The position numbers and the translations under genes are program-made. Of a stretch of DNA of 64,000 nt, positions 10,336 to 47,790 are shown in pieces. Under the pieces are notes generated by a model that saw only the letters and a list, made by a program, of their open reading frames with translations, was not told the DNA's origin and did not search any database. Source of the stretch: Gammaproteobacteria bacterium (lineage in GTDB: Bacteria > Pseudomonadota > Gammaproteobacteria > SG8-11); the NCBI GenBank assembly GCA_024641505.1, contig JAHECY010000006.1:1512-65511 (forward strand). The letters are read 5' to 3'. The stretch's first letter is position 1; each line of letters begins with the position of its first letter.

Positions 10336-10960
10336 AATTTAAGCTGTATGCGTAGGGTGCGAGACGGTGTAACAACCGCGGCTGAAAGGCGCTGCGCAAA
10401 GAATCGGCTTCATCACACCACTGAAGCGCCAGTATCGCTTGGTGCGTAATACGCACCCTACGTGCCACTTGCGCTTGGTTTGTGACGCCGATCAATGTTG
10501 TTACGCAACCCCATTTCCCGTCTGCGATAACGGTGGTATTCTCGATTGGCAAGTAAGATGGTATCAAATTAAAAAATTGTAGGGTGCGTATTACGCACCG
10601 TCTTTATGCTTTATCCAAAGGATTGCCTGGCTCCAAACAAAACACCTAGTGGGTAACAACCGATTGTAGGGTGCGTATTACGCACCGTCTTTTGCTATAT
10701 CCAAGAGATTGCCTGGCTCCAAACAAAACACCTAGTGGGTAACAACCGATTGTAGGGTGCGTATTACGCACCGTCTTTATGCTTTATCCAAAGGATTGCC
10801 TGGCTCCAAACAAAACACATAGTGGGTAACAGCCGATTGTAGGGTGCGTATTACGCACCGTCTTTTGCTATATCCAAGAGATTGCCTGGCTCCAAACAAA
10901 ACACATAGTGGGTAGCAACCGATTGTAGGGTGCGTATTACGCACCGGCTTTTGCTCTTTC
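10336..10960. repeat. REP (palindromic GTAGGGTGCGTAWTACGCACCCTAC) cluster, including a tandem array of five copies at about 86-87 bp spacing with alternating A/B sub-units
   Basis: Palindrome copies begin at about 10347 (partial), 10441, 10578, 10665, 10751, 10838 and 10924. Spacer variants ccgtctttatgctttatccaaaggattgcc and ccgtcttttgctatatccaagagattgcc alternate. Confidence 0.85.
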
Positions 10961-11251
10961 CAAGCGTTTGCTGCGCACCAATAAGAGACATGGTGCGCAA
11001 TACCTGCCCAGGGCACTTCCATTTAAACTGATTCTAACTATTCAATCGCGGTTTTATCGTTTTTTCCTACATCGACACCCAATCTTATCATTGCTCGTTA
11101 TTAACTCCCCGAGGTGGATAAATCCCCTCCTGAAAGTCTATGTAATTACCGTATTTCAGGGCTTCTCGACCCTTACTATTCTGGTAAACTCTCCAGGTCT
11201 TCGAGCGGTACCCAGATCGGTCACCGTTACGTTTTCCACAGGGGGGAAACC

Positions 11252-13030: not shown

Positions 13031-13045
13031 GTAACACATTGTTAC
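13031..13045. promoter_or_regulatory. Inverted repeat GTAACA-cat-TGTTAC in hemerythrin promoter region (candidate operator)
   Basis: Perfect palindrome read directly, about 210 bp upstream of the hemerythrin ATG. Its half-site equals the (TGTTAC)n microsatellite unit at 26361-26390. Confidence 0.35.
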
Positions 13046-13253
13046 ACATCACATTTTCAACATCATGCACCCTATTTGTTCAAAATATTCAGCCATTTAT
13101 AAAACCTTACATATGTTCTCCCTGTAAAGAATTATTACAAATAGACGACAAATGCACTAAGGATTTTAACTGAGTTGTTTACTTTGTTTTACACCTAATA
13201 CAGTGACAACGACTCATTTGCCTTGAATATAACCCCCAAGAGGAGATCGACAC

Positions 13254-13682: not shown

Positions 13683-13722
13683 ACCTCGGGGGGTGCGCAT
13701 CGCACCCCCCTTTTTTTTCCCC
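13683..13722 (+). terminator. Rho-independent terminator after hemerythrin gene
   Basis: ggggggtgcgcatcgcacccccc hairpin followed by a T-run (tttttttt). Confidence 0.6.
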
Positions 13723-14000
13723 CTCGGCAGTACGCAATCCCATTGCAGGTGCGCAGCGTCCCCGCCATTGGTGCTCCCCCCTCGATATTGCGGAATCACA
13801 TTTGGGATGCGCATCGCACCGCTTTTGTTGCGGCCCCTCGTTAGTGCGGAATCACATTCGGGGTGTGCATCGCCCACCCTTTAGTGCGCGCCCTCGACAG
13901 TGCGCACCTTGGGGGCGTATGACGCACCGATCTTTATCTGGTTTTGTCACCATCGAGAGCACATGAACGAAAAGCAAAAGCCGGTGCGTCATACGCACCC
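13683..14000. repeat. Cluster of about 5 degenerate REP-like palindromes (GGTGCG..CGCACC variants)
   Basis: ggtgcgcatcgcacc, gatgcgcatcgcacc, gtgtgcatcgcccacc, ggcgtatgacgcacc and ggtgcgtcatacgcaccctac lie in the convergent intergenic region. Confidence 0.6.
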
Positions 14001-23812: not shown

Positions 23813-26272
23813 CTAGCTGATCTTGAACTGCGCTACCTGGCGTGCGAGAGCTTCTGACTGCTCCACCATGGTTTCCATGATGTCAGCGTTGGCGCCGGCA
23901 CCTTCCACCGTTTGCACCGCCGCTTGTCCCGATTCCTGGGACAGCTTGGTAATCGCCTTGGAACGTTGCGCCTGCAGACCGGTCATATGCTGCATTTCCT
24001 CACCGCTTCGTACTACACCTTCCATTTCATGACCGATGATGCGAGCGTTTTCATTAGCTTCCATAACCAGCGCCGAGATCTTGTTCGACGCCTGCAACAT
24101 CTTACGCAGCGAATCTTCCGCAACGGTACGACGCTTGGTATTTTCCGTAGCCATTTCACCGATTTGTTGCGCCAATGTGTTCAACTCGCGAATCAAACCC
24201 TGTACTTCAGTGGTACTGCCACTGAGGGACTCCGCCGAACGTTCGATGTCTTCGATGGAGCGCATGTTATCGCGACCGCCTTCGTCGATTTTGCGCAGCG
24301 CTTCCTGGGACTGGTCAGTCAGTTTTACCCCGTCCGCCACGTTGTTTGTGGAGTCCTTGATGAGCTGGGTGATTTCCTTGGCGGCCTCGGAAGACCGCTG
24401 GGCGAGTTTACCTACTTCATCCGCAACCACCGCGAAACCCTTACCGTGCGCACCGGCACGCGCCGCTTCTACCGCGGCGTTCAAGGCGAGCAAGTTGGTT
24501 TGTTCGGCGATTTCCGTGATTACCGAGATGATTTCCGAAATCTGTTCGGAAGATCCAGCGATGGCGCGCATACCTTCTACGGTAGCGGCCACTGCTTTCC
24601 GGCCTTCTTCCGCCGCTGCCAGCGAACCGCGACCGAACTGGGTCGCCTGTTGTACGGAACGTTGCATGGTATCCACCGCCGCCACCATTTCGTTGATAGC
24701 GCTGGTGACTCGCATTACCATCTTGCCCTGTTCCTGCGCGGACACCGCCACTTTCGCACCGGCATCACCCATTTCCGATACGCGGGACATGGTTTCGCCC
24801 GCTTCCCGGTCCTGGTTCCGTTGGGATTCGGATACGATACTCATCTTTTCCTGCAATTCGCGCAACAGCCCTGAGGATTTTTCCGCAGCGCCCTGCTGAC
24901 CACCGGCTTTTTCGTTGATCTGACCGGCGGTGGCGCCCATTTCCCCGATAACCTTTCCTGCAGTTTGGGAACGATTGAGCTCTTCCTCGGCACGCTTTCT
25001 GTTGTTGCCGGCGCGAGTCGCGGCTTCCGTGGCGTTTCTGGCGACATCACCGGCCGCGGAGTTTACCTCGACAAACGCGTTCTTGATAACATCCATCATA
25101 CCGTTGAACGATAACGACATGGCGCCGATTTCATCCTTGGATTCCACCGGCACATGAATGGTAAGGTCGCGTTTCTCGGCGATGTTCTGAATGGTGTCCG
25201 CCATCCGGATAACCGGACCCGCGATCACCCGGGTCAAGAACACAATCAATATTGCGCTGATCAGCAAGCCGGCTACCAGCAGGCCCCATTCGATGTTTTT
25301 CAAGCGTACGGTAAGAGTCGCCGCGGACGCTACGTCGTCCTGCAGCAATTTGTCCTGGCTTTCCACCAATTCAGAAAGCACCTCAACGATCGCCTTAGCG
25401 GTCGGTGCAGCGCGGGTCGCCAGCCAGAAATTGGCCAGGTTAGCTTCGGCGGAAGCCTGGATCTTAAACATCTTCTCGGGCAACGGTTCGAATTCCGCGC
25501 GTACCTGTTTGAACTGGTCAAATGCCAGTTTTTGTTCCGGTGACAGGTGCTGGTAATTATTGGCCAGGTCATTGAAACGCAGGGTATTCTTGGACCATAG
25601 ATTTTCGAAGCTGGTTTTCAAGGACTCATCTTTGGTGAGCAGGTAGGCGCGAATACTCGCCAAACCCAGACCGGTGGTACCGCGCACGTCAGCCATCATG
25701 TACAGAATGGATTTGCGTAATGGCGTACCCTCCAACTGGCCTTCCAAGTCGATCATGCGCGTGATCAACTCGGCGAGCTTGGCGGATCGCGGCTGTGCTT
25801 CTTCCGCCAGCATTTTCAGCGCCGGTTCCTGATCGACAGTGTTGGCGATGTCTTCGACTTCCTGCTGGTACTTGCGGAACAACTCCAGTTCCTTGCCGAT
25901 TTTATCAACGCGCTTGATGTTTTCCGCGTTGGTAAAATTTTTCGAGAATCCCTGCAACGCATCGAAGTTTTTGTCGATCCAGTTTTTCCAGCTCTCATCT
26001 CGTTGGGTCTTAAATTGTTCTTTACCCAAAAGCATCCAACCACGCAATGCCGCCAATGATTCGTTGACGCCGTTCAACAAGGAAAGACTGGCGCGGGCCA
26101 CCGGTGTTCGCAGTTCCGCAACCCGATTCGACAGAGTTTGCACCTCTGTTACCTCATAGATCGTTATACCTACCGCTGATACGAGCAACAATGCCATCAT
26201 GCCGAAGCCTGTGCCCAGCTTGAATGGCAGTCTCATATTAGCAAAGAGACCAAAGTTGGTATTCTTAGCCAC
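23813..26272 (-). CDS. Methyl-accepting chemotaxis protein with about 290-aa periplasmic helical sensor, HAMP and MCP signalling domain
   Basis: TM1 [17 protein letters not shown] and TM2 [21 protein letters not shown]. The highly conserved signalling tip [35 protein letters not shown]. No C-terminal NWETF-like pentapeptide. Confidence 0.9.
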
Positions 26273-26360
26273 TTTCTTTCCTCCGTTTCACCTGAATTAA
26301 GGCCAAATGCTGTGTGGTGGGCAAAAAAGCCGCTTTCACCAAGAGCGCAGGACCCGCGTT

Positions 26361-26390
26361 TCTGTTACTGTTACTGTTACTGTTACTGTT
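26361..26390. repeat. Hexanucleotide microsatellite (TGTTAC) x about 4.7
   Basis: tctgttactgttactgttactgttactgtt read directly, about 90-118 bp upstream of the MCP start codon, in the intergenic gap between the cheB-like2 and MCP genes. Confidence 0.9.
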
Positions 26391-26485
26391 TAAACTCTAA
26401 AGCCAATTTTCCGTCTGTTACTCATAATAATTTCGCATCTTGCAACCATACACAACTTCACGCCACGCGCTCTGGCAGCAATATT

Positions 26486-27589
26486 TTATTGCAAGTCGTT
26501 AATCACCTGCGCAAGTTGGCTGTCGCTTACCGTTGTTGCGTCCGGACACCAGGCGAGGGCGGCGTTGGCCATATTCTTGTACAAACAGGTTTTCAGGTCC
26601 TGCACCACGGCGCTTCCACCAACCCGGTGTATTTCCTCGAGGCCTTCGGCCCCATCACTGCCGGTGCCTGACAACACTACGCCCACGGCATTCTCGCCCA
26701 TGGCCTCAGCCACGGAAAACATCAACATGTCCACCGCACCCTTACGCGAAGCGAACGGCGCCGGTTGCACATGCAGGCGACAATTGTCGTCCGTTTGCCT
26801 ATGTACGGTCATGTAGTTACCGCCGGCGTTCAGATAGCACACCCCGGGACGCAGCAATTCATCATGCACGGCGCGCTTGACCTCGACTGCACTATAGTTG
26901 TTGAGGTAAGTGGCAAAGGCGTCAACGTACTCCTGGGCGGCGTATAAAGTAACCATATAAGCAACCTGCCGGTCAGCGCGCAAGTTGGGCACGATTTTCA
27001 GTAACGCACCATAACCACCTTCCGCGGCACCAATCGCGACGATGCGATGGCATTCCGGAAGCGACACGTCCTGTCCCATCAATTCAAGATTGGGTAGATT
27101 ACGGATATATTTGATCGCTTCCACTTCCACCACCGAGGCAAATTTCACCTTGTTACGAATTTCACCTTCCTGAGCGGAAACATCCTCGCCATTGACCGCG
27201 GATGGCTTGGCGATAAAATCCACTGCACCATAGCGCAGCGCGTCAAACGTCACCGCCGCGCCTTCCATGGTGAGGCTCGACAGCATCACCACCGGCGTCG
27301 GATAGCGAATCATGATATGTTTCAAAGCGGTGACTCCGTCCATTTCCGGCATGCGGATATCCAGCGTGATGACATCGGGCCTGTGCTCTTGCACCGCCGC
27401 CAGCGCCTCGCGGCCATTTTTGGCCACCGCCACGATTTCCACATCCTTGTCGTTCTGGAAAATACGGGTAACCGAATCCCGGAGAATCTTGGAGTCGTCC
27501 ACGATAAGCAACTTCAATACTTTACCGGTGCCACCGTCAATCGCCTCGGCAAACTCGTCTGAATGCTTTTTTACAGTGCTCATGCTCAT
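26486..27589 (-). CDS. Second CheB-like protein (REC + methylesterase fold) with apparently degenerate catalytic triad
   Basis: REC (LLIVDDSKILR...ITLDIRMPEMDG). AIGAAEGG aligns with IGASTGG (Ser to Ala). MVTLYAAQEY aligns with ITQHMPPGF (His to Tyr). SGTGSDG keeps the Asp. Start overlaps the upstream gene's stop (ATGA). Confidence 0.8.
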   Translation of the reverse strand: MSMSTVKKHSDEFAEAIDGGTGKVLKLLIVDDSKILRDSVTRIFQNDKDVEIVAVAKNGREALAAVQEHRPDVITLDIRMPEMDGVTALKHIMIRYPTPVVMLSSLTMEGAAVTFDALRYGAVDFIAKPSAVNGEDVSAQEGEIRNKVKFASVVEVEAIKYIRNLPNLELMGQDVSLPECHRIVAIGAAEGGYGALLKIVPNLRADRQVAYMVTLYAAQEYVDAFATYLNNYSAVEVKRAVHDELLRPGVCYLNAGGNYMTVHRQTDDNCRLHVQPAPFASRKGAVDMLMFSVAEAMGENAVGVVLSGTGSDGAEGLEEIHRVGGSAVVQDLKTCLYKNMANAALAWCPDATTVSDSQLAQVINDLQ

Positions 27590-28284
27590 CCTAGATATTT
27601 TTTCAGTTTTTCTTTCAAGGCCGCGGAGTCCACAGGCTTGGTCATGTACTCATCGGTACCGGACATTTTTCCTTTAAGTTTGTCAAACAACGTGTCACGA
27701 GAGGTAAGCACGATCACCGGCACATCCTGCAGACGTTCGCTTTTTTTCATGGCGGCCAGCACCTCATATCCGTCTTTTTTAGGGAGGATCAAGTCCAGCA
27801 GCACCAGATCCGGTACATCCCGACCCAACAGAGCCAAGGCCTCCTCCCCGTCCCTGGCTTCGGAAATGAAATATCCTTGATTCGCAAGTGATTCCACCAA
27901 CACCTTGCGCGCCAAACCGCTATCTTCCACAATCAAAATCTTTTTCAAGCCCATGGACGGCGACTGGTTGAAGTCCACGCCTAACTCGAGGAAGATGTCC
28001 TCGTTGCTCATGGCACCAACGGGCGCCGTCGTCACATTAGCGCTGCCCTGGGCATCGCCTTTAAAAAAGAACTTGGCACGTTCGATTTTCTTGATTTCCG
28101 CCAAGGCCGGAGCGCCACGCATATTGCGAAAGAACACATCGACGATATTGCCGGTATTCAGCGAAAAGATGACGCCATGGCCCTGATCCGTGTACATGTA
28201 CATAGCCCCGCTGTACCGTTCCTTGCACAGTTTCAGCAATGCCCTGGCGGCATCCTTGAAGGCTACAAGTTCATCTTTAGACAC
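27586..28284 (-). CDS. Response regulator with N-terminal about 110-aa uncharacterised domain and C-terminal REC domain
   Basis: The C-terminal half KILIVEDSGLARK...DLVLLDLILPKKDGYEV...TSRDT...K is a REC domain. The N-terminal domain (MSKDELVAFKDAARALLKLCKERYSGAMYMYTDQGHGVIFSL...) is not recognised. Confidence 0.7.
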   Translation of the reverse strand: MSKDELVAFKDAARALLKLCKERYSGAMYMYTDQGHGVIFSLNTGNIVDVFFRNMRGAPALAEIKKIERAKFFFKGDAQGSANVTTAPVGAMSNEDIFLELGVDFNQSPSMGLKKILIVEDSGLARKVLVESLANQGYFISEARDGEEALALLGRDVPDLVLLDLILPKKDGYEVLAAMKKSERLQDVPVIVLTSRDTLFDKLKGKMSGTDEYMTKPVDSAALKEKLKKYLG

Positions 28285-28700
28285 TGGATATTCTCCTGGA
28301 TGTCATCCTGCGCCGGCAGTGGCATCACCACCGATCACACTGAGTTCTATAATCATCAAAACCGAGCAGGCAATAATTCACCTGAAATTACTACGCAAAC
28401 CAAGACCTGGCTCAAAGTCCAGGGCTATGTGTCTTATCGACAACTCTTAACCTCGCTTTAACCTTTTGGGTAAAAATTATCAAAATACTCAAACATCGTG
28501 ACTAATCATTGATTTCGTGAACCCGGTTATGCCCCGGAACGGGGCACATTGAATTAAAAAAATTAAGGCTATTACAGGGTGGTCACTTACCTGTTTATCG
28601 TCAGCGCCGCGCTTTCGGTTAATGTTTATGTCAATTCAGCCGTTATCTGTTTGACTAACGTCTAACGGTATGTGCCCACTATCCCATCGGAATATCGGTT

Positions 28701-31025
28701 ATGCTTGAACCTAATGAAAAGGAGAGTTTGTTGTCGGATGCGGCGCACACCGACGTTAGCGAAACGCCGGAATACACCGATGTTGCCGTCGATTTAGACA
28801 ACAATGATGTTCTAGAACTGCAGAATAATTTGCAGGCCACGATCAAGGAACTTGCCGATGCCATGGATGCGGAAAATATGCAGCGACAGATGGTATTGCA
28901 GGCTGAACAACGCGACCAGGCCGAGCGCGCAATTGATGTTGAAATGTCCCACCCGCTCGATTCCGTAGAACATACTCCAAGCGCCGATTTTGAAATCCAT
29001 GACGCAGTTACCGTTTCCGCGACATCGACATCGGGGGTTACCGATAACCTGTCGCTGGATGAACTGCTGGCGGCGTTGAATATCAGCACCCTACCGCGGC
29101 CCGACGCGGTTGACGACAGCACCACCGAGACCACAAACGACATGCCGACCCAGGTACCGCGCATCGAGAACCTGTGGCAGGAACTCGGGGAAATCTGGCC
29201 GGTAATAACGCACCATCCTGAGGTGGTAACCAACATCGAGGAATTGTGGAGCAGGCTCAAGGAGGCGCACCATACTGGCACGCTGGGCACCGAACTTTCC
29301 CAGTTGTATTCTAAATTGACCGACGACGATACCGCTAACCCAGCACCGACGACCGCGCCACTTCGCAACAGTGATGAAGTTGCGGATATAGTCAGCCGTA
29401 TTCTTGCCGGAGTAAAGACCCGGGATATCATCAACGACACCGGTCCAGATGCGTCTGTTGCAGCGCCTCTCGCGAAACAGGGTACCGAGGAATTCGACGT
29501 CGACAATTTCCTGCAACGCTATGCCATGGACGCCGAACCCGCCCCGGCGGCCACCGTCGTACCCAAGGTTACTGAAAATCGCCAGAAAAAACCCAACACC
29601 GGCAACAAACTCACGATCAGTGCTGACGAGCTGGCGATACTGGAAAATATTCTGGGCGACCGCCTGGACCGTAACGCCATTGGCGCACCGGCGCTTGACC
29701 ATGACGCTGACGAAGTAAATACCGGGGGACATCCGCATTCTGACTCGCGGGAGATTGTCTCCCAGCCAAAACCAAACGGCACCGACCCGGCACCCATAAA
29801 AGACGTGGAACAGCCGGCGCGGCACAGCCGGTCGACCCATAAGTCTCCGTCGCGCAAGGCACACAAGTCAAGCGCGACCCACGCGACACCGACATCACCG
29901 GTTCCGTACCAGCCGGCACATACAGTTGCCAGTGCCGACGTCTCGGCGCTGGATACCAATGAAACTGATGACGATGCTGATAAAAAGTCCTACTGGCTGC
30001 CGCGCGTCACGGCCGCACTGGTAATTGTCGGTATTGCCTGGCTGTGGTTAAGTAGCGGTTCCGAGCAGGACCTCGTCGCCACCCAGGATGCAACCCGGGA
30101 AACCCGCAACGGCATGTCGCCGACACAACTTGCGGAAAATGAAAATTCAAAAACCCTCGCGGAAAGTAAAGCCGAGTACCGCCGGGCTGCGGAACAAGAG
30201 CATGCGCGCGTCGTCAGCGCCGCTGCTGCCCGCAAGACAGTCCCGAACGACAACCGTCCGATGATGCCAGGGGCGGGCAATGACACTGAAGCCAAGCGGC
30301 CCAGGGAGCTCAGTACTACAGAAGTCGCCAGCCAAATCCCGGGTACCGCAGGCGGTACCGGTGCGCCATCTGGCGTCACTGGAGACCACGTGCAAGCCCC
30401 TCCGGCCGTACAAAGTCTCGCCACCGGCTCGGTGCCCGTCGTGCCCGCGAATTCTTCGGAGCTGACGCAAAATACCGCCTACAACACGCTCACCGAAACC
30501 TTGAACCTATCCACGCAGAACATTCAAAATCTGGTCGATGGTTCCCTGGATCGTTTGCGTACCAGCACCCAAAATGGTTTGCAGGATCTTTCCCAACGTG
30601 TCAATCGGCTGGAAGACGCTATTGGCAAATTACACGCCGCCATAGAGTCCCTGTTGCACCAGAATAATGAGGCGCGCGCCGACCAAAACCGGAGTTTATC
30701 AGCATTGGGAGAGCGACTTGATGGTTTGGAAACCGCGCAAAAAAAGGCCTTTAATGCCAGAATCGAACGCGACAAGGAAGGCGTGACCATCGTGCTGACG
30801 GAACCACGCGCTGGCCGCACCGGCGAAAGTGGCGCCGACGGTACCTATGATGTGATCGTGCACACCGTGGTCAAAGGCGACACCCTGTGGGATATCGCCG
30901 CCAAGTATATCAACGATCCGTTTCGTTATCCGGAACTGGCCAAACTGAGCAAAATCAAGAACCCGGACCGTATCTTCCCCGGAGACCGGGTGCGTATCGT
31001 CCGACGTTATGTCACTGAACCGTAA
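28701..31025 (+). CDS. Large acidic single-pass membrane protein with C-terminal periplasmic coiled coil + LysM domain (HubP/FimV-like, reversed domain order)
   Basis: 774 aa. The N-terminal roughly 430 aa is highly acidic, low complexity, and has no signal peptide. One TM (YWLPRVTAALVIVGIAWLWLSS) is preceded by KK/R. C-terminal LysM (YDVIVHTVVKGDTLWDIAAKYINDPFRYPELAKLSKIKNPDRIFPGDRVRI). The minus ORF 28679-29506 is an antisense shadow. Confidence 0.6.
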   Translation: MLEPNEKESLLSDAAHTDVSETPEYTDVAVDLDNNDVLELQNNLQATIKELADAMDAENMQRQMVLQAEQRDQAERAIDVEMSHPLDSVEHTPSADFEIHDAVTVSATSTSGVTDNLSLDELLAALNISTLPRPDAVDDSTTETTNDMPTQVPRIENLWQELGEIWPVITHHPEVVTNIEELWSRLKEAHHTGTLGTELSQLYSKLTDDDTANPAPTTAPLRNSDEVADIVSRILAGVKTRDIINDTGPDASVAAPLAKQGTEEFDVDNFLQRYAMDAEPAPAATVVPKVTENRQKKPNTGNKLTISADELAILENILGDRLDRNAIGAPALDHDADEVNTGGHPHSDSREIVSQPKPNGTDPAPIKDVEQPARHSRSTHKSPSRKAHKSSATHATPTSPVPYQPAHTVASADVSALDTNETDDDADKKSYWLPRVTAALVIVGIAWLWLSSGSEQDLVATQDATRETRNGMSPTQLAENENSKTLAESKAEYRRAAEQEHARVVSAAAARKTVPNDNRPMMPGAGNDTEAKRPRELSTTEVASQIPGTAGGTGAPSGVTGDHVQAPPAVQSLATGSVPVVPANSSELTQNTAYNTLTETLNLSTQNIQNLVDGSLDRLRTSTQNGLQDLSQRVNRLEDAIGKLHAAIESLLHQNNEARADQNRSLSALGERLDGLETAQKKAFNARIERDKEGVTIVLTEPRAGRTGESGADGTYDVIVHTVVKGDTLWDIAAKYINDPFRYPELAKLSKIKNPDRIFPGDRVRIVRRYVTEP

Positions 31026-33034: not shown

Positions 33035-33793
33035 TCACGCCGGCGGTTGAATATCCAGCACATGAATCATACGCAAACGCGTTTTGTCAAACACACCGAT
33101 AAACCAGTGGTAGCGAGACCGCACGGGAATATAAACAAGTTTGTCCCGGTCACCCTCCAGACCGCGCAGATATTCCTGATAAGTCCGCATGTCGTCAGGT
33201 TTCTGCGCTAAATAACTGTCCATATCAATCGCGGCGGCAATGATCTTTCCGATGTTGCTGTCATTGATCGGACGGAAGTGCTCACTGAAAAGATACACCG
33301 GTTGACTGTTTTTAAGCGCTCTGACACGCAGCGCCTGTTCAGATACGGGATCTTTCGGCATTTCGAAATAAATCAGCGCGGGTTGCTCCCGGTCAAACGC
33401 CGCCAGCTCGGATGTCGTCAACCCGGCCTCCGTCAAAATCGAGGTACTGATGGGATGAAAGCTCTCATCGGCGAACACCACGGCGACCGGGCGCTCGTTG
33501 TATACAAAATAGGTACCGGCGGTCAGTGCCAGGGTTTGAAACAGGGCGATGGCGCTCATGTCGAACTTCAACCCGGGTTTACCCTGTTTGAACACCACCA
33601 GCGTGAGCAAAGGCCCCAATACCACATCGACGCCTGCGACGATGCGAATGCCCTGCCAACCGCCGTCGCTGGTGAAATACCCGTGCGGATACCAATGCAC
33701 CAGGATCATATAGAGCAATCCCAAGAAAATACACAAACTGAGGGCGAAATGAATTCCGAAGGCTTGCCAGCGATTGATATTTTTCAAATGCAT
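33035..33793 (-). CDS. Membrane protein (3 N-terminal TM helices + about 140-aa soluble domain), possibly type IV pilin accessory protein (FimB/TfpY/TfpZ-like)
   Basis: 252-aa ORF divergent from pilS. TM helices FGIHFALSLCIFLGLLYMIL, IVAGVDVVLGPLLTLVVF and AIALFQTLALTAGTYFVY. The assignment rests on context and architecture only. Confidence 0.4.
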   Translation of the reverse strand: MHLKNINRWQAFGIHFALSLCIFLGLLYMILVHWYPHGYFTSDGGWQGIRIVAGVDVVLGPLLTLVVFKQGKPGLKFDMSAIALFQTLALTAGTYFVYNERPVAVVFADESFHPISTSILTEAGLTTSELAAFDREQPALIYFEMPKDPVSEQALRVRALKNSQPVYLFSEHFRPINDSNIGKIIAAAIDMDSYLAQKPDDMRTYQEYLRGLEGDRDKLVYIPVRSRYHWFIGVFDKTRLRMIHVLDIQPPA

Positions 33794-33985
33794 ATAGACC
33801 TCGAGAAATCCGCAAATAACACACAGAAGTATCCATCAAAATATCGTACCGGTGATGAATTACTTAAGCACGGAAATATCCGGTATTTCTCCTGCCTCCA
33901 CGGCGACCATACACGCGTATTCCGCAATTTGTGTCCGGCTGAAAAACTGACTTATATTTTGGGAAATTATGCCGAAAAACTGTCC

Positions 33986-35617
33986 ATGAGCATTCTTTCC
34001 ACTGCATATCCCGATCATCCGGCGGATTCTATCGAGGCGTCCTACCCGGATCATATTCACACCTGGCGACCGTTGTTCTGGCTGAATATCTATCGTTTCG
34101 TCCTCAGTTTGTTCCTGGTCGGATACTTGCTAAGCAGCGGCGACGAATCCTATATCGGAAAAATGCTGCCGGATCTGGCCAAGCATACCAGTGTCATCTA
34201 TTTACTGTTCAGCAGTCTGACCTTTGTCACCATACGCATGATGCGCCCCGATTTCATCATCCAGGTACATATGCAGGTGATGGTGGACATCACTCTGCTC
34301 ACCCTGCTGATGCATGCCAGCGGCGGCATTCAAAGCGGCTTGGGCATGTTCATCAATATCGTGATTGCCGGTGGCGCCATCGTGGTCCCGGGGCGCAACG
34401 CCAACCTGTTCGCGTCCCTGGCGAGCCTGGCGTTACTCGCGGAACAAGCCTCCGCTTACTTCAGCAGTGAAGTGCCTACCAACTATCCGCAGGCGGGCAT
34501 TCTTGGGGTCAGCTTTTTCGCTACCGCCACCCTCGCCTATGTGCTGGCACGGCGCATTCGTGCCAGTGAGGCGCTGGCCAGTCAGCGGGGCGCCGATTTG
34601 GCCAATATGGCGGAACTCAACGAGCACATCATCCAACAAATGGATTCCGGGGTTATCGTTATCGATCATCGCCTGACAGTGCGTCACGCCAACCGCGCCG
34701 CCAGCCGCATGCTCGCCAAAAACAATATTCTTTACGGTCAAAAACTTATTAATATCGCACCGGAACTGGCAACCGCCTACCAGCAATGGCGTGTACACCA
34801 GCAACCCCAGAACCGGGATTTGCATGTCATGGAGAACGGACGCGAGCTGCACCCCCAATTCATTCTGCTGGGCAGCCATGACGAGTCGGGCATACTGATT
34901 TTCCTCGAGGACATCAGTGATACCTTGCATCAGGCACAGCAAATGAAACTTGCGTCCCTGGGCCGACTCACCGCCAGTATTGCCCATGAAATACGCAATC
35001 CCCTGGGCGCCATCAGCCATGCCGGTCAGTTGCTTGGCGAATCGACCGCGCTGCCGCCGGCTGATCAGCGCCTGGCGCAGATCATCCAAAATCATACACA
35101 GCGGGTCAACGTCATTATTGAGAACATACTGCAATTGAGTCGCCGGGATCATTTTGCGCCGCAGTCTATCGCGCTTATTCCATGGCTTGACAAATTCGTC
35201 GACGAATTCACCACCGACAACGATTTACCGGCCGACAGTATCCAAATTATCGGACATAGTTCGCTGACCATTGTCATGGATCCATCTCAATTGCATCAGG
35301 TCATCAACAATATCGCGAGCAACGCCTTGCGCTATTGCGTGCGCACACAGTCACCCTGGATAAAACTGCTGGCCGGTGTAATCGCGGAACGGGAAACTCC
35401 ATACCTGGATATTATTGATAATGGACCCGGCATCCCGGCGCATTTTCAGGCAAATATTTTCGAGCCGTTCTTTACCACTGAAAACACGGGCACCGGACTA
35501 GGCTTGTATATCAGCAAGGAATTGTGCGCCATCAACAAAGCCAAGTTGGCTTACTTTATCACCAAAGAGGGTGAAAGCTGCTTTCGCATCTACTTTTCCA
35601 ATCATCAGCATGTGTGA
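33986..35617 (+). CDS. pilS: Sensor histidine kinase PilS (6-TM, PAS, HisKA, HATPase)
   Basis: Start at MSILSTAY (in-frame internal ATG; the ORF-track 5-prime extension overlaps the divergent gene). Multi-TM N-terminus. H-box SIAHEIRNPLGAI. N/G boxes (IIDNGPGIP...GTGLGL). Immediately upstream of pilR. Confidence 0.85.
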   Translation: MSILSTAYPDHPADSIEASYPDHIHTWRPLFWLNIYRFVLSLFLVGYLLSSGDESYIGKMLPDLAKHTSVIYLLFSSLTFVTIRMMRPDFIIQVHMQVMVDITLLTLLMHASGGIQSGLGMFINIVIAGGAIVVPGRNANLFASLASLALLAEQASAYFSSEVPTNYPQAGILGVSFFATATLAYVLARRIRASEALASQRGADLANMAELNEHIIQQMDSGVIVIDHRLTVRHANRAASRMLAKNNILYGQKLINIAPELATAYQQWRVHQQPQNRDLHVMENGRELHPQFILLGSHDESGILIFLEDISDTLHQAQQMKLASLGRLTASIAHEIRNPLGAISHAGQLLGESTALPPADQRLAQIIQNHTQRVNVIIENILQLSRRDHFAPQSIALIPWLDKFVDEFTTDNDLPADSIQIIGHSSLTIVMDPSQLHQVINNIASNALRYCVRTQSPWIKLLAGVIAERETPYLDIIDNGPGIPAHFQANIFEPFFTTENTGTGLGLYISKELCAINKAKLAYFITKEGESCFRIYFSNHQHV

Positions 35618-35623
35618 GGCGCC

Positions 35624-37000
35624 ATGAACACCCCATTAACCCTGCTGGTGGACGATGAACCTGATTTGTGCGAACTGCTGTCGCTGACGCTGCAGCGTAT
35701 GAACATCAACTCCCGGGTCGCCCACAATATCGAACAGGCAAAACAATTACTCGCCGACGAAAAATTCGATTTGTGTCTCACCGACATGAGACTGCCCGAT
35801 GGCAATGGCATTGATCTAGTGCGGCATGTACAACATCGGTACAGCGATTTGCCGATCGCGGTGATTACCGCCCATGGCAATATGGAAGCGGCAGTCGAAG
35901 CGTTGAAATCGGGTGCTTTTGACTTTGTTTCCAAACCCGTGAATCTGCAGGTGCTGCGTAATCTGGTACAAACCGCCCTGCGCCTGACCCAAAAGTTCCC
36001 GGAAACGGACCGCCGTACCCGCGACATCTTAATCGGCGATTCCGCGCAGATGCAGCAATTGCGCGGCACCATTGCCAAATTGGCGCGCAGTCAGGCACCG
36101 GTGTATATCAGCGGTGAATCCGGTACCGGCAAGGAACTGGTAGCACGCATGCTGCACGAAAAAGGACCCCGCGCCGGCGGTCCGTTCATGCCGGTAAATT
36201 GTGGCGCGATCCCGGGGGAATTGATGGAAAGCGAATTTTTCGGGCACCGCAAGGGCAGCTTCACCGGTGCGCACAGCGACAAACAAGGTTTGTTCCAGGC
36301 GGCTCAGGGTGGCACCCTGTTTCTGGACGAGGTCGCGGATCTACCGCTCAGCATGCAGGTGAAACTGCTGCGTGTGATTCAGGAACGGGCGGTGCGTCCG
36401 ATCGGCGATGCCAAGGAATTGCCGATCGACGTGCGCATCCTGTGCGCCACCCATAAGCCGCTGTCAACTCTGGTGGCCCAGGGCGCGTTTCGGCAAGATC
36501 TTTACTATCGCCTGAATGTCATCGAAGTCCGGGTGCCTCCGCTGAATCAGCGCATCGAGGATTTGCAGGAACTGGTCCCTCATATCATCAAAAAACTGAC
36601 CGGTAACGCCGTCCCGCCATTGACCGTCGACCCCGCGGCACTGGTCAAACTTGGCACCTATGACTTTCCCGGCAATATCCGGGAATTGGAAAACATTCTG
36701 GAGCGCGCCAGTACGCTGTGCGAAAACAATATCATTCGGGAACAGGATCTGGACCTCGGCAGATCCTCTTCCACTCTGGCACCGGCGCCGAAAGCCGAGC
36801 GCGAACCCCTCGAATCCAAAACCCATACCCGCGGCATGACACCCGACGAAAACCTCGAAGAGTACCTGGAATCCGTGGAACGCAGCACCATACTCGAAGC
36901 GCTGGCGGCTACCGGTCAAAACAAGACAGCCGCCGCCCGCAAACTCGGCATTAGTTTTCGGGCCTTGCGTTACCGGTTAAAGAAGCTGGGGCTGGATTAG
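35624..37000 (+). CDS. pilR: Sigma-54-dependent response regulator PilR
   Basis: REC (LLVDDEPDLCELL...LCLTDMRLPDGNG). Sigma54 AAA+ domain (GESGTGKELVARMLH...GAFRQDLYYRLNV with the GAFTGA-like ESEFFGHRKGSFTGA motif). C-terminal Fis-type HTH. Confidence 0.9.
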   Translation: MNTPLTLLVDDEPDLCELLSLTLQRMNINSRVAHNIEQAKQLLADEKFDLCLTDMRLPDGNGIDLVRHVQHRYSDLPIAVITAHGNMEAAVEALKSGAFDFVSKPVNLQVLRNLVQTALRLTQKFPETDRRTRDILIGDSAQMQQLRGTIAKLARSQAPVYISGESGTGKELVARMLHEKGPRAGGPFMPVNCGAIPGELMESEFFGHRKGSFTGAHSDKQGLFQAAQGGTLFLDEVADLPLSMQVKLLRVIQERAVRPIGDAKELPIDVRILCATHKPLSTLVAQGAFRQDLYYRLNVIEVRVPPLNQRIEDLQELVPHIIKKLTGNAVPPLTVDPAALVKLGTYDFPGNIRELENILERASTLCENNIIREQDLDLGRSSSTLAPAPKAEREPLESKTHTRGMTPDENLEEYLESVERSTILEALAATGQNKTAAARKLGISFRALRYRLKKLGLD

Positions 37001-37097
37001 GTGACCTTATCCTACACCCGCGAGTGTCCATTCTGGTCACCTGACCATTTGTATCAGCGCTTTCCGTTATATGGATATTACGAATACTGCTCTCCCC

Positions 37098-37140
37098 CGG
37101 GTTCAGCACTTGCTGCAGTGCTTGGCTAAGTTTTTGTTTT
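37098..37140 (+). terminator. Probable rho-independent terminator downstream of pilR
   Basis: agcacttgctgcagtgct hairpin followed by tggctaagtttttgtttt. Confidence 0.5.
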
Positions 37141-37201
37141 ACATTCCATAGTTACCCGTTCCGGCAAGATTCTCAAGTTTCGTCGCCATGCAACCGATAC
37201 C

Positions 37202-37217
37202 TGGCACAACTACTGCA
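37202..37217 (+). promoter_or_regulatory. Sigma-54 (-24/-12) promoter candidate for pilin gene
   Basis: TGGCACaactaCTGCA matches the TGGCAC-N5-TTGCA consensus (GG and GC 10 nt apart). About 140 bp upstream of the first pilin ATG, with the sigma54 activator PilR encoded adjacent. Confidence 0.5.
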
Positions 37218-37357
37218 CTAAGCACAGCAAGGCAAGTTTCCTGGGCCTTGCTTCAAGGATAGATCGGTTAATGCAGCGCCTAAAACAGACCACTGGCAAG
37301 GTTACAGGAAACTTGATCCCCCTGATTCACAACAATGCTTTAGAAGAGGAGCTCCAA

Positions 37358-37840
37358 ATGAAGAATGTAAAAGGTTTTACCTTGATCGAATTGATGATCG
37401 TGGTCGCGATCATCGGTATCCTGGCAGCCATCGCCATCCCGGCTTACAACGGCTACATCGCACAAAGTAAAGTTTCCGGCATGATCGAAAACATGGAAAA
37501 CGGTTTCCGTTTAGCCAAAGCCGAAGCTGCCAAAATCGCCGCTGGCGGTGTGTGCGTCAGCGTCGTCAACCAAGCCAATGACAATGGTGGAGTTGCACTT
37601 GCTGGCAAACGCGCTATCGGTGACCAAACCGTAGACGCATATGCAGTTGGTGCCGTCGCCAGCCCCGGCCAGATCGCCATCACCGACGCCGGCAGCACCC
37701 TGCCGACCGCCGCTGACGACAACGGCTGCCCGGAACCCGGTGACACTGTTGTTGTAACGATGACCCCGCCTGCAGGTCTGGTAGCCGCTGCGTTCCCTGG
37801 TGGCGCCCTGCCTGCTGACAAGACCTTCGTGGCCGAGTAA
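37358..37840 (+). CDS. pilA: Type IV pilin (major pilin candidate, PilA-like)
   Basis: Class III leader MKNVKGF|[23 protein letters not shown] (Gly-1, Phe+1, Glu+5). RBS agaggag. Two Cys (GVCVSV, NGCPEP) allow a C-terminal disulfide loop. 160 aa. Confidence 0.85.
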
Positions 37841-37887
37841 GCGGTTGATAAGCACGGAGCAGTAGCACCACACCGTGCTGATTAGGA

Positions 37888-37922
37888 TAAAAGGGGCTGG
37901 TAAACACTAGCCCCTTTTTTTA
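37888..37922 (+). terminator. Rho-independent terminator after first pilin gene
   Basis: aaaggggctggtaaacactagcccctttttttt: a GC stem followed by a T-run. Confidence 0.65.
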
Positions 37923-37952
37923 TGTTCAAGTTCCATCATGTGAGCAGCGACT

Positions 37953-38390
37953 ATGGAGTCCAGACAAACAGGATTTACTCTCATAGAATTAATGATTGTG
38001 GTTGCAATCATTGGCATCCTCGCCTCGATCGCCATCCCAGCCTACAACGGCCATATTCGCCAGACCAAGATAGCTGCGCTGATCGAGCATCAGGCAAATG
38101 CGATCAAGATTATCAAAAGCGAAGCCGCGAAAATCGCCGCGGGCGCAAACGGGGCCGATGTTATCGTGCAACTGAACTTTGGCGACCGTAAAGCGGTGGG
38201 CGACACCAGCGTAGCCGCATTTGTCGCCGCGGCGCCCGGCGCCCCCGGCCAAATAGAAATCACGGGCATGACCGGAGCCGGTAATGTGCCTTCACCGGCA
38301 GATGCAATTTCCGTCACCATGATTCCCATAGCCGCCACTAACGCCGCGGATTACCCGGTGCCATTAAGCATTACTTTTTCGGTTGAGTAG
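37953..38390 (+). CDS. Type IV pilin paralogue (no cysteines)
   Basis: Leader MESRQTGF|[25 protein letters not shown]. 145 aa. No Cys residues. Confidence 0.8.
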
Positions 38391-38762
38391 TGGTAGCGGA
38401 TTGTGACGTAATACCCATAACGGTATTAATGTTGCAATAGAAACCCAATGACTGGCGCCATTCAAGGAGTCTGATTTTTGGTCGACAGTATAGCGAGGGT
38501 GACCCGCTGGGCACGATACCCGGAGTCTCCCGCGGCCAATGACCGCCTTATGTGGGAAGGCGCTTTAATCATCCCACAAGTTTTCTTCAGGTGGACAGGG
38601 AGTTGTCTGCCTTATCCAGGTCGCGCATCGCTACGGTATAAATGGGCGCTGCGGTCCGACACGACGGGTAGCGACGTGTCCGGCGCCGCTAGCAGCACCA
38701 GCCGTGCGCTACCATGAGCAGTTTTTCCGGCAATGCCGGTTCCGTAATATTCGGAGGTATAA

Positions 38763-39170
38763 ATGAAATACTCTATCACAGCAAAGCGTTCCACCGGTTT
38801 CACCCTGATCGAAATCATGATCGCCATGGCGGTGCTGGGCGTAATCGCGGCGATTGCGATTCCCGCCTACAGAGGTTATCTCGCCACCTCCCGGGAAACC
38901 GAAGGCTGGAATAACCTCAACACTTTAGCCATTGCCGAAGAAGAATTTTTCCTGGAAAACAGTACCTACTTTGTCGGTACGGACACCGCCACATTGGTGA
39001 CCAGCAGCGGCGGCCTGTGGAACCCCGCCGAAACCGTTGAAACGGATCGCGCCTTCGTCTATACGGTGGCTGCCGGAACCACGGGCGCCGCCACCAGCAG
39101 TTACAGCGCGACCGCCACCGGTAAGGGCGATAAAGTACCGGTGACCACGGTACTCACAAAAGGCAACTAA
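38763..39170 (+). CDS. Type IV pilin-like protein (third paralogue, no cysteines)
   Basis: Leader [13 protein letters not shown]|[26 protein letters not shown]. 135 aa. Thr/Ser-rich C-terminus. Confidence 0.75.
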
Positions 39171-39437
39171 GCTGTGTCTGGCGCCCTGCCACAACAACGG
39201 CGGGGCAGATGTAGAAAAACCGGGTCGGGCACCGGGAAGCCGTGACCTGGTTACTAAAGTTGTCGTGGTGCTTCCCGATATAAGCAAAGATACCCGCATC
39301 CGGGGACAGTACAGGCGGCATAATCACTATTAGCTAATCATTTTTTATGATAAGGCCAGCGGTTCATCAACAATGCGCAGGCCGGATAAACATGCCCTCT
39401 TGAACCTACAGCATCGCTAACAACAGCAGATATAGAT

Positions 39438-41159
39438 ATGGCGACACAATCGGCGCAACTAAAACTGAGTGGTCTGGCACGGCGTCTGGTGCAGGACAAG
39501 CTCATTACGGAAGAGGATGCCATCAAGCACCATGCGACCGCTTTAAAAAAGAAAATACCGTTCGTCACCCACCTGGTGGAGAACAATGTCGCTAAGGCGA
39601 TCGATATCGCCAATTGCGCATCTCAGGAATTCGGCTTGCCGCTCCTTGATTTGTCCATCGTCGATATTGAAAGCGATATCGCAAAGCTGGTGGATGAAAA
39701 AGTGGTGCGTCAACACCACGCCCTGCCGCTGTATAAACGCGGCAACAGGCTGTATGTCGGCATTTCCGACCCCACCAACCTGCAAGCGCTGGACGCCATC
39801 AAGTTCAATACCGGTCTGACCACGGAAGGCATCCTGGTCGAAGAAAATAAACTGGTCAAGACGATCGATACGGTCCTGGCGCAAAACGACAACTCCCTGT
39901 CCGATCTTGGTGATGACAGCCTCGACGATCTGGAAATTTCCGCCGACGACGATTTGCAGGCAAACAATTCTGACGCCAGCGAAGTCACCGGTGATGACAC
40001 ACCGGTAGTACGGTTCATCAATAAGGTGTTGCTCGACGCCATTAACAAAGGGGCCTCGGATATTCATTTCGAACCCTACGAAAAAGTCTATCGGGTACGT
40101 CTGCGTCAGGACGGCGTGTTGCGCGAAGTCGCCTCACCGCCGATACAGTTGGCGCAAAAAATCGCCGCGCGCATCAAGGTCATGTCAAAAATGGACATTT
40201 CCGAACGCCGGGTGCCGCAGGACGGCCGTATCAAAATGAAGTTGTCGAAAACCAAATCCATCGATTTTCGTGTCAACTCCTGCCCTACCCTGTTTGGCGA
40301 GAAAATCGTACTGCGTATTCTGGACGCCTCCAGCGCCATGCTGGGGATCGAAGTTCTGGGCTACGAGGACGAGCAACGCAAACTGTATGAGGACGCCCTG
40401 AAAAAGCCCTATGGCATGATTCTGGTGACCGGCCCTACCGGTAGCGGTAAAACCGTATCGCTGTACACCGGATTGAATATACTGAACACCGAAGACCGCA
40501 ATATCTCCACCGCCGAGGATCCGGCTGAAATCAACCTGCAAGGCATCAACCAGGTCAACATGAACGCCCGGGTCGGGCTGACGTTTTCCGCTGCCCTGCG
40601 CGCTTTTTTACGCCAGGACCCCGACATCATCATGGTGGGGGAAATTCGTGACCTGGAAACCGCGGAAATCGCTATCAAAGCAGCGCAAACCGGCCACTTG
40701 GTATTGTCCACGCTGCATACCAATGACGCCCCGCAAACCCTTACCCGGCTAATGAACATGGGCGTACCCGCGTACAACATCGCCAACGCTGTGTCCCTGA
40801 TCATCGCCCAGCGGCTGGCCCGGCGCTTGTGTAAACATTGCAAGAAACCAGTGGACGTACCCAAGGATGTGCTGCTGGATGAGGGATTTTCGGAGGCCGA
40901 CGTCAACCGTGGCTTGAAATTGTTCGGCCCGGTGGGTTGCGATCAATGCGCCAACGGCTACAAAGGCCGGGTCGGTATTTACCAGGTGATGCCGATCACC
41001 GAAGGTATTTCACGCATCATTCTCGAAGGCGGCAACGCCATGAATATCGCGGATGCCGCCGAGAAGGATGGTATCGCCGATTTACGGAAATCCGGCCTGC
41101 GTAAAGTAAAAGAAGGCCTCACCAGTCTCGATGAAATCAACCGGGTTACGAAGGAATAG
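39438..41159 (+). CDS. pilB: Type IV pilus assembly ATPase PilB
   Basis: 573 aa. N-terminal GSPII-like domain. Walker A GPTGSGKT. Asp box. Tetracysteine CKHCK...CDQC. Confidence 0.9.
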   Translation: MATQSAQLKLSGLARRLVQDKLITEEDAIKHHATALKKKIPFVTHLVENNVAKAIDIANCASQEFGLPLLDLSIVDIESDIAKLVDEKVVRQHHALPLYKRGNRLYVGISDPTNLQALDAIKFNTGLTTEGILVEENKLVKTIDTVLAQNDNSLSDLGDDSLDDLEISADDDLQANNSDASEVTGDDTPVVRFINKVLLDAINKGASDIHFEPYEKVYRVRLRQDGVLREVASPPIQLAQKIAARIKVMSKMDISERRVPQDGRIKMKLSKTKSIDFRVNSCPTLFGEKIVLRILDASSAMLGIEVLGYEDEQRKLYEDALKKPYGMILVTGPTGSGKTVSLYTGLNILNTEDRNISTAEDPAEINLQGINQVNMNARVGLTFSAALRAFLRQDPDIIMVGEIRDLETAEIAIKAAQTGHLVLSTLHTNDAPQTLTRLMNMGVPAYNIANAVSLIIAQRLARRLCKHCKKPVDVPKDVLLDEGFSEADVNRGLKLFGPVGCDQCANGYKGRVGIYQVMPITEGISRIILEGGNAMNIADAAEKDGIADLRKSGLRKVKEGLTSLDEINRVTKE

Positions 41160-41164
41160 GACAC

Positions 41165-42385
41165 ATGGCTACCAAATCCAATTTGATGACGTTCGCCTGG
41201 GAAGGTACCGACAAAAAAGGCGGCAAAAAATCCGGGGAATCCATCGGCGCCAGTGAAGCTCTGGTTAAGGCGGAACTGCGGCGCAAAGGCATCAACCCGA
41301 CCAAGGTCAAGAAAAAGTCCTCCAAGGCAACCGGCGGCAAGAAGATCACTCCCAAAGATGTTGCCATTTTCATGCGCCAGCTGGCTACCATGATGTCCGC
41401 CGGCGTACCGTTGGTGCAATCCTTTGAAATCATCGGTAATGGACACGAAAACCCCAACATGGCGACGCTGTTGCTCACGGTGAAGAGCGACGTGGAAGGC
41501 GGTAACACATTGGCGGATTCCATGGCCAAGCATCCCGTATACTTTGACAAACTGGTATGTAATCTGATCGGTGCTGGTGAACAAGCCGGTACTCTGGAAA
41601 ACCTGCTGGACAAAATCGCCACTTACAAGGAAAAAATGGAAGCCATCAAGGGCAAGATCAAGAAGGCGCTGTTTTATCCCGCGGCGGTAATGGTGGTCGC
41701 GTTTGTCATCACTTGCGTGTTGATGATTTTCGTTATTCCCAGCTTCAAGGATCTATTCGCGGGATTTGGCGCGGATCTTCCCGCGCTTACCCAGATGGTC
41801 ATCGACATGTCCAACTTTTTCGTATCCTACTGGTGGGCCATCTTTGGCGCCATCGGTGGCACCATATTCAGTATTGTCCAATTTTACAAGCGTTCCAAGG
41901 CCATGCAGAACCTGATGGACCGCACCATCATCAAGACGCCCATTATCGGTCCGGTACTCAACAAAGCGGTAGTGGCGCGTTTCGCGCGTACCTTGTCCAC
42001 GATGTTCGCCGCCGGTATGCCGCTGGTGGACTCACTGGAAACCGTAGCACAAGCCGCCGGCAATATCGTCTACGAAGAAAAGATCCGCATCATGCGCGAC
42101 GAAGTTTCAACCGGTAACCAGATGAATGTTTCGATGAAGGAAAGTGGTCTGTTCCCCAGCATGGTGGTGCAAATGGTCGCCATCGGCGAGGAAACCGGCG
42201 CTATCGATACCATGCTCAGCAAAGTCGCGGACTTCTTCGAGGAAGAAGTGGATAACGCGGTGGATGGTTTGACCAGTCTGCTGGAACCGCTGATCATGGC
42301 GTTCCTGGGCGTGGTCATCGGCGGCCTGGTTATCGCCATGTATTTGCCAATTTTCAAAATGGGCAGCGTGGTCAACGGCCATTAA
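41165..42385 (+). CDS. pilC: Type IV pilus platform protein PilC
   Basis: 406-aa polytopic protein with duplicated T2SSF-type domains. Directly follows pilB. Confidence 0.9.
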   Translation: MATKSNLMTFAWEGTDKKGGKKSGESIGASEALVKAELRRKGINPTKVKKKSSKATGGKKITPKDVAIFMRQLATMMSAGVPLVQSFEIIGNGHENPNMATLLLTVKSDVEGGNTLADSMAKHPVYFDKLVCNLIGAGEQAGTLENLLDKIATYKEKMEAIKGKIKKALFYPAAVMVVAFVITCVLMIFVIPSFKDLFAGFGADLPALTQMVIDMSNFFVSYWWAIFGAIGGTIFSIVQFYKRSKAMQNLMDRTIIKTPIIGPVLNKAVVARFARTLSTMFAAGMPLVDSLETVAQAAGNIVYEEKIRIMRDEVSTGNQMNVSMKESGLFPSMVVQMVAIGEETGAIDTMLSKVADFFEEEVDNAVDGLTSLLEPLIMAFLGVVIGGLVIAMYLPIFKMGSVVNGH

Positions 42386-47461: not shown

Positions 47462-47790
47462 GGGTGCATATTACGCACCGGCATTAAATCCAGAACAGCG
47501 CCTTCGTGTAATTAACAACACGGTGCGTAATACGCACCCTACGCCATGGTGCCGCGGCGTTGCTGGTATTTCTTAGCGAAACCGCAGCTCTTGCCCAAAC
47601 GAAGCCGGACTTCGCTCGAATTATAAACGCCGGTGCGTAATACGCACCCTACGCCATGGTGCCGCGGCGCTGCTGGTATTTCTTAGCGAAACCGCAGCTC
47701 TTGCCCAAACGAAGCCGGACTTCGCTCGAATTATAAACGCCGGTGCGTAATACGCACCCTACGCCATGGTGCCGTGGCACTGTTTGTATT
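47462..47790. repeat. REP copies plus two degenerate 110-bp tandem copies of the secA 3-prime terminus (stop codon + zinc-tail coding region)
   Basis: The units 47521-47630 and 47631-47740 each run REP - cta - cgccatggtgccgcggcg.... On the minus strand they read ...GKSCGFAKKYQQRRGTMA*, against the genuine SecA tail ...[17 protein letters not shown] at 47741-47850. An additional REP variant lies at 47462. Confidence 0.85.

Follow-up and report, generated by a model that had tools for sequence, protein, structure and literature searches.

A probably polymorphic hexanucleotide repeat in a chemosensory gene cluster of an uncultured gammaproteobacterium

Short tandem repeats upstream of genes can act as expression switches, but they can also be the passive residue of replication slippage, and a TGTTAC array in front of a chemoreceptor gene of an uncultured gammaproteobacterium raises the question of which of these it represents. 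An initial annotation had proposed that the array could vary in repeat number and tune promoter spacing and that its hexamer, shared with a palindrome upstream of a hemerythrin gene, reflects a regulator common to both loci. We examined these proposals across the 64-kb (64,000 nt) stretch of DNA containing both loci, hereafter the window, to which all coordinates refer. The evidence favours, with a probability of roughly 0.6, a near-neutral slippage product that sits in a tolerant operon spacer and is polymorphic in the population.

The array lies upstream of a gene for a methyl-accepting chemotaxis protein (MCP; 23813–26272, minus strand), an open reading frame of 819 aa with a GTG start and Pfam matches to 4HB_MCP, HAMP and MCPsignal domains, preceded by a GGAGGA ribosome-binding site 7 nt before the start codon (26284–26279, minus strand). 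On the plus strand, sequence search of the window found four TGTTAC units at 26363–26386, followed by TGTT through 26390 (the microsatellite proper, 26363–26390), which on the minus strand, the strand of the gene, reads AACA(GTAACA)4G with a periodic run of 29 nt (26362–26390). The direct repeats reported upstream of the MCP gene are therefore present and extend far beyond chance, with the end correctly placed at 26390 and the start, given as 26361, two bases before the true one at 26363. Tandem Repeats Finder (TRF) reported a slightly longer array at 26358–26390 (period 6, 5.5 copies, 96% matches, score 59), because it counts GTTTCT as a degenerate first unit (AGAAAC on the gene strand, annotated at 26358–26362, minus strand). 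With four units plus 4 nt, the tract is a simple sequence repeat (SSR) in the sense of perfect head-to-tail units of 1–9 nt beyond chance, and it was the sole perfect SSR found in the window by a regular-expression search for units of 2–9 nt in at least three copies spanning at least 18 nt. Gene coordinates place it in the 213-bp spacer between a CheB-like gene and the MCP gene (26273–26485, minus strand), 91–118 nt upstream of the GTG start. It is non-coding with respect to the MCP, as an in-frame TGA (26290–26288) occurs six codons before the start. A plus-strand open reading frame that crosses the tract (26312–26671) and would encode (Cys-Tyr)4 was judged spurious, as it overlaps the CheB-like gene's 3' end in antisense.

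The surrounding cluster is encoded entirely on the minus strand in the order response regulator, CheB-like, the 213-bp spacer, MCP, CheW, CheY, CheA and a second CheB, beyond which follow, also on the minus strand, a ParA-like ATPase with a zinc ribbon and an ABC transporter. The response-regulator gene, first in the cluster (27586–28284, minus strand), has a C-terminal receiver domain by Pfam, preceded by about 110 aa without a Pfam match, while the CheB-like gene (26486–27583, minus strand) combines receiver and methylesterase domains. The CheB-like protein is on record in public gene calls as a 365-aa form, and the 367-aa open reading frame is without an exact record. The CheA of the cluster comprises 1169 aa. 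Two CheB-type proteins are encoded in the cluster and no CheR was seen within the stretch examined. None of the cluster's proteins gave a Pfam match to a DNA-binding domain. Type IV pilus genes adjoin the cluster (33278–42385); they encode a PilS-like kinase, a PilR-like sigma-54 activator, two pilin-like proteins, and PilB- and PilC-like proteins.

If the tract tuned promoter spacing, a promoter would be expected nearby, and the scans of the spacer gave none, so this proposal was not borne out. Neither a sigma-70-like promoter nor an intrinsic terminator was found on either strand of 25900–26900 in a consensus scan based on E. coli-type sequences. The top sigma-28 score in the spacer was 10/16, a value reached by 205 of 300 shuffles, and inspection of the spacer by eye revealed no sigma-54 GG-N10-GC match with the right spacing. 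At the RNA level, there was no Rfam match at E<=1 over 26000–28800, the predicted fold of the spacer RNA was not stabler than those of shuffled sequences (z=+0.56), and the tract was mostly unpaired in the centroid fold. A structured RNA or riboswitch in the spacer was rejected on the basis of the Rfam result and a fold stability no better than that of shuffles.

A candidate promoter was identified further upstream, before the response-regulator gene. The FliA-type (sigma-28) consensus is TAAAGTTT-N11-GCCGATAA, and the consensus match TAAAGCGA-N11-GTCGATAA at 28434–28460 (minus strand) scores 12/16, a value reached by 16 of 300 shuffles. At the same place, the orthologous locus L002 carries TAAAGTCG-N11-GCCGATAC, which scores 13/16 (reached by 1 of 300 shuffles). 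No sigma-28-like site was found in the upstream regions of the orthologous loci L007, L135 and L136, and such a site is present in only two of the five orthologous upstream regions. The pattern TAAAG-N14-17-CGATA has two matches in the window against 0.19 expected, the second of which (39255–39280, plus strand) lies upstream of the PilB-like type IV pilus ATPase gene. From its sequence, the cluster is most likely a single operon whose transcription begins at a sigma-28-type promoter ahead of the response-regulator gene. The spacer would then be co-transcribed with the upstream genes and, given the sigma-28-like site, the tract is probably transcribed as part of an operon spacer.

Whether the number of units varies was addressed by exact-protein look-ups, which placed the locus in one other assembly, that of the metagenome SRR12825371 in Logan (an accession not found in the literature), where it occurs as two contigs. 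The first, L128, carries the response-regulator and CheB-like genes with one mismatch to the window and ends ...TTTAAACA(GTAACA)4G; the second, L001, carries the MCP and CheW genes with no mismatches and begins AACA(GTAACA)4GAA.... In other words, L128 ends with TA plus the 29-nt periodic run and L001 begins with that run plus AA, such that the two overlap by 29 nt, the entire run, and the single missing 31-mer is the run with an A on either side. Logan contigs derive from a k=31 de Bruijn graph from which k-mers seen only once are dropped and in which all 31-mers are distinct (PMC12424806). No 30-mer across the tract recurs elsewhere in the window, and every 31-mer and 30-mer is unique for an allele with four units, so a lone four-unit allele would give an unbranched path. 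Only k-mers in which the period carries on, with T in place of the flanking A, would create a branch at both edges, implying an allele of at least five units in the sample. Two other causes fit the break less well: with a three-unit allele, the contigs would have ended 6 nt further out, and a foreign array could have produced it only by matching the flanking base and the phase at both ends. It is therefore likely that alleles with four and with at least five units coexist in one natural population, as judged from assembly behaviour rather than from reads. The proposed variation in repeat number thus has indirect support, from two contigs of SRR12825371 that each stop at one edge of the tract. 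A single C/T difference between L128 and the window, at position 28546 in the intergenic region upstream of the cluster, is evidence of strain-level diversity.

Comparison with orthologous loci indicates that the array is young. The best non-self homologue of the MCP is 61% identical, a scan of genome contigs with the MCP protein found no close relatives, and scans of metagenome contigs with both flanks and a variable gap, or with the right flank alone, gave no matches. Gene order from the response regulator through CheB-like, MCP, CheW, CheY and CheA to CheB is retained in L002/L003, L007/L008, L135 and L136, and, without the response regulator, in L005/L006, while L004 was seen in part. The spacers between the CheB-like and MCP genes of the orthologous loci span 95–273 bp. 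Neither GTAACA nor TGTTAC occurs in these spacers in six distinct loci (L002/3, L004, L005/6, L007/8, L135 and L136), and a scan of four of the orthologous spacers for SSRs gave none. The tract therefore appears to be lineage-specific, since the orthologous spacers are without its hexamer in either orientation, and this absence from all six loci is the lack of conservation across species expected of a young slippage product. The gap of 213 bp is long for one within an operon and the orthologues keep gaps of 95–273 bp, which may point to an unrecognised internal promoter or RNA element. The L135 spacer (4906–5000) contains a 17-nt tandem duplication, TAGATGGTGT(T/C)GGGTAA x2, of a sequence unrelated to the tract. 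CheA lengths differ between near-identical contigs from different assemblies (951 versus 963 aa in L005 and L006; 1114 versus 1110 aa in L007 and L008), which suggests that CheA carries a length-variable repetitive linker.

The same repeat is widespread. Arrays of at least four GTAACA copies were found in at least 119 unrelated species genomes, and among the matches listed, the taxa with (GTAACA)4 belong to many phyla, from Firmicutes to Bacteroidota and Proteobacteria and even an archaeon, with no flanks in common with this locus. Counting one array per locus among the matches listed, 64 lie in long open frames (54% coding), 37 of them encoding (Asn-Ser)n and 19 (Thr-Val)n, and 55 are intergenic; relative to the nearest downstream gene start, the intergenic arrays listed are sense in 18 cases, antisense in 15 and both in 6. 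As a microsatellite unit GTAACA is generic, and nothing in these counts points to a strand-specific role. We rejected a general function for such arrays given their occurrence in many phyla, the 54% that are coding and the unbiased orientation among the matches listed.

The second proposal concerned a link to hemerythrin. The palindrome GTAACA-cat-TGTTAC is present where it was reported, as GTAACAcatTGTTAC at 13031–13045, 209 nt upstream of the ATG (13254) of a hemerythrin gene (Pfam PF01814) that is preceded on the plus strand by an adenylate/guanylate cyclase gene. However, shuffles and orthologue comparison led us to judge it unrelated to the tract. Among dinucleotide shuffles, 9.7% contain one or more palindromes that combine a rotation of the unit with a spacer of 0–10 nt (2.3% for a spacer of 3 alone). 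Perfect 6+6 inverted repeats with spacers of 0–10 number 347 in the window, and the pattern allowing up to two mismatches has 1 match against 1.19 expected. A regulon motif should be more frequent than chance at regulatory positions, which neither the 9.7% of shuffles nor the 1 versus 1.19 matches indicates. The hexamer itself occurs 30 times in the window against 17.6±3.8 expected, with the tract supplying four copies and one 86-bp tandem repeat three. In intergenic DNA, after repeats were collapsed, nine copies remain against 3.2±1.8 expected, four of which are the sites at which the motif was discovered and two to three the GTAACAACCG end of the 86-bp repeat family.

Conservation gave the same answer. 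The closest hemerythrin loci, L129–L134, encode hemerythrins at least 90% identical by cluster membership, their hemerythrin coding sequences share 86% nucleotide identity with that of the window, and they retain the order of cyclase and hemerythrin genes; a further hemerythrin on another NCBI contig (P0123) is 94% identical. The regions upstream of hemerythrin in L129–L134 contain no TGTTAC at all and therefore no palindrome, and in alignment to the hemerythrin relatives the position of the palindrome is not conserved. A regulon motif should also persist among relatives, and here the palindrome is missing from L129–L134 and the hexamer from the orthologous MCP spacers. A distance of 13 kb that includes an ABC transporter separates the tract from the palindrome, and the extended motif GTAACAGA (the array's final unit together with its flank) is absent from the palindrome, which is without the GA extension. 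With the sharing of the hexamer at chance level (9.7% of shuffles), both sites unconserved, 13 kb between them and GTAACAGA not in the palindrome, a common regulator of the hemerythrin and chemosensory genes found no support, and we conclude that the hexamer common to the two sites is a coincidence. A block about 100 nt before the hemerythrin ATG, AAATAGACGACAAAT (13139–13153), is conserved with L129 whereas the rest of the intergenic region is not, making it a better candidate regulatory site than the palindrome.

Several other repeats were observed near the hemerythrin gene and elsewhere in the window. A 56-bp tandem repeat (x3.3; 13719–13904) follows the single hemerythrin gene, while in the closest relatives the same cyclase gene is followed by a tandem pair of hemerythrin genes (L129, 2625–3998). 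Two further long tandem repeats, of 86 bp (x4.6; 10576–10971) and 110 bp (x2.6; 47521–47807), both hold the palindrome GGTGCGTA(T/A)TACGCACC and look like a REP-type intergenic element family.

Additional copies of GTAACAGA occur around the MCP start. On the same (minus) strand the motif is found at 26145–26152, 26361–26368 and 26414–26421, placing three copies within 280 nt at about +121, -97 and -150 relative to the start, with only one further copy elsewhere in the 64 kb. In the motif search, the upstream copy proved to be a solitary AGTAACAGA identical to the last unit plus flank (26414–26422, minus strand; about 150 nt upstream of the MCP start), while the downstream copy lies inside the MCP coding sequence (minus strand) at about codons 41–43. 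A first-order Markov model predicts 0.005 copies in 600 nt, with a probability of about 1e-5 for two or more before allowing for post-hoc choice. GTAACAGA is absent from the orthologues. The nearby copies could reflect either a local duplication history or a lineage-specific binding motif; the two extra copies are not expected of a purely neutral slippage product.

The preferred reading is that replication slippage created the tract and also alters its length, making it a young, lineage-specific hexanucleotide VNTR. A sigma-28-type promoter before the response-regulator gene would drive the operon, and the polycistronic mRNA would carry (AACAGU)n some 90 nt before the MCP ribosome-binding site, with each unit gained or lost lengthening or shortening the spacer by 6 nt. 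The effect on expression would be little or none, such that the tract would be a tolerated near-neutral polymorphism rather than a regulatory device. The same observations could alternatively describe a contingency-type rheostat, in which slippage stochastically shifts the expression of the MCP, and possibly of the downstream che genes, so that cells differ in their chemosensory settings. This could operate through shifts of 6 bp per unit in the phase of an upstream element relative to an unrecognised internal promoter, as in Neisseria nadA, or through changes to a transcribed leader or spacer, as in Haemophilus hmw1A, both of which are genes whose expression SSRs do control (PMC2791445, PMC12721329). 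Such a device would fit a tract that probably varies within one metagenome, has no other SSR beside it in the 64 kb and is positioned 91–118 nt before the MCP start in a long spacer. However, the spacer scans gave no promoter, no stable hairpin involves the repeats, and the tract is found in none of the orthologues, while GTAACA arrays elsewhere have no positional or orientation preference among the matches listed. Its 4.7 units are also few compared with known phase-variable tracts, the hmw hairpin alone using 10 repeats on one arm. A phase-variable SSR would be expected inside the coding sequence or among the elements of a promoter or operator, whereas this tract lies outside the MCP coding sequence and the sigma-70-like and sigma-28-like scans gave no promoter in its spacer. 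We therefore regard a rheostat as unlikely, and a more specific version, in which the tract and the two nearby GTAACAGA copies act together as a stochastic chemoreceptor rheostat with four versus at least five units altering the amount of MCP and possibly of downstream Che proteins, as distinctly improbable.

It is also conceivable, though we consider it highly unlikely, that GTAACAGA is the element of a lineage-specific DNA-binding regulator, one site of which was amplified by slippage. Such a regulon might or might not extend to the hemerythrin palindrome; if it did, this would be the version put forward in the initial annotation. Three same-strand copies near the MCP start against 0.005 expected, and the excess of the hexamer in redundancy-collapsed intergenic DNA (9 versus 3.2±1.8), are consistent with reiterated protein-binding sites, but four of those nine hexamers are the discovery sites and two to three belong to the 86-bp family (GTAACAACCG). 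Furthermore, the palindrome has no GA extension and shares the hexamer at chance level, palindrome and tract are both unconserved in orthologous loci, and the cluster proteins are without a Pfam DNA-binding domain. Most regulators that bind direct repeats recognise sites spaced 10–11 bp apart, which fits poorly with a 6-bp period. An effect through RNA appears still more doubtful. The gene strand of the tract, transcribed as AAC AGU ... AGA AAC, contains 11 consecutive A-R-N triplets, the motif bound on mRNAs by the distal face of Hfq, and could in principle recruit Hfq and a small RNA to control translation of the MCP. Such a site calls for three to four or more triplets in a row, in mRNA that is unpaired. 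In mRNA leaders, Hfq is known to bind at ARN motifs (PMC5580658, PMC3458560, PMC10920880), the tract is largely unpaired in the centroid fold, and co-transcription is likely with no terminator found and a sigma-28-like promoter upstream. Against this, we estimate that about 1 in 20 random hexamer repeats fit ARN in some frame, the tract is absent from orthologues, and the 18 sense versus 15 antisense intergenic (GTAACA)n arrays among the matches listed speak against a general role at the RNA level. For each of these alternatives the key element is missing here, be it a promoter or set of operators, a partner arm for a hairpin, a regulator, or a bias in orientation.

The tract was compared with characterised systems, among them the VNTRs used in strain typing. 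Hexanucleotide VNTRs serve multilocus VNTR analysis (MLVA) typing of Gammaproteobacteria, for example at 6-bp loci in Vibrio cholerae and Salmonella Typhimurium. Like these, the tract consists of short, perfect head-to-tail 6-bp units, such loci being sometimes intergenic, and function need not be assumed; in the typing loci slippage makes the copy number differ between closely related cells, as it probably does in the tract. Unlike the MLVA loci of Vibrio cholerae and Salmonella Typhimurium, it has 4.7 units, its variation is deduced from assembly breaks in one metagenome, and its host is an uncultured gammaproteobacterium represented solely by a MAG. In Neisseria meningitidis nadA, a TAAA tract is located upstream of the promoter, between mapped NadR operators and the mapped promoter (PMC2791445). 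The two share a non-coding SSR upstream of a gene, in which unit number could shift the spacing of a distal element, but the nadA unit is 4 nt long with a mapped promoter and operators, whereas here the unit is 6 nt and neither was detected in the spacer. The Haemophilus influenzae hmw1A 5'-UTR contains (ATCTTTC)n, which forms a long hairpin with a G-rich arm that is cleaved by RNase III and has at least 11 units in nature (PMC12721329, PMC8262952). The hmw1A SSR is transcribed upstream of a start codon, as the tract probably is, and in both an effect of repeat number on expression through the RNA is possible in principle; in contrast to hmw1A, the tract has no complementary arm, no stable fold and just 4–5 units. 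Similarly, (ARN)n sites for the distal face of Hfq occur in mRNA leaders (PMC5580658, PMC3458560) and, like the tract, present runs of A-R-N triplets before a ribosome-binding site, but the run in the tract is a by-product of the repeat unit.

The tract is thus probably best described as an ordinary intergenic VNTR that is probably polymorphic. Its use is as a strain marker, by which genotypes of an uncultured bacterium that live side by side could be told apart from their copy number, and as a caution that short tandem repeats break up k=31 assemblies. As it stands, it matters little, being one more probably polymorphic microsatellite for which the oxygen-sensing link to hemerythrin does not hold. 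SSR-based contingency control has so far been documented mostly for the surface structures of host-adapted pathogens. If copy number changed chemoreceptor expression, phase or rheostat variation by SSRs would extend to chemosensing and to environmental bacteria, and a single population of a free-living, uncultured gammaproteobacterium would hedge its chemosensory behaviour through a sigma-28 operon.
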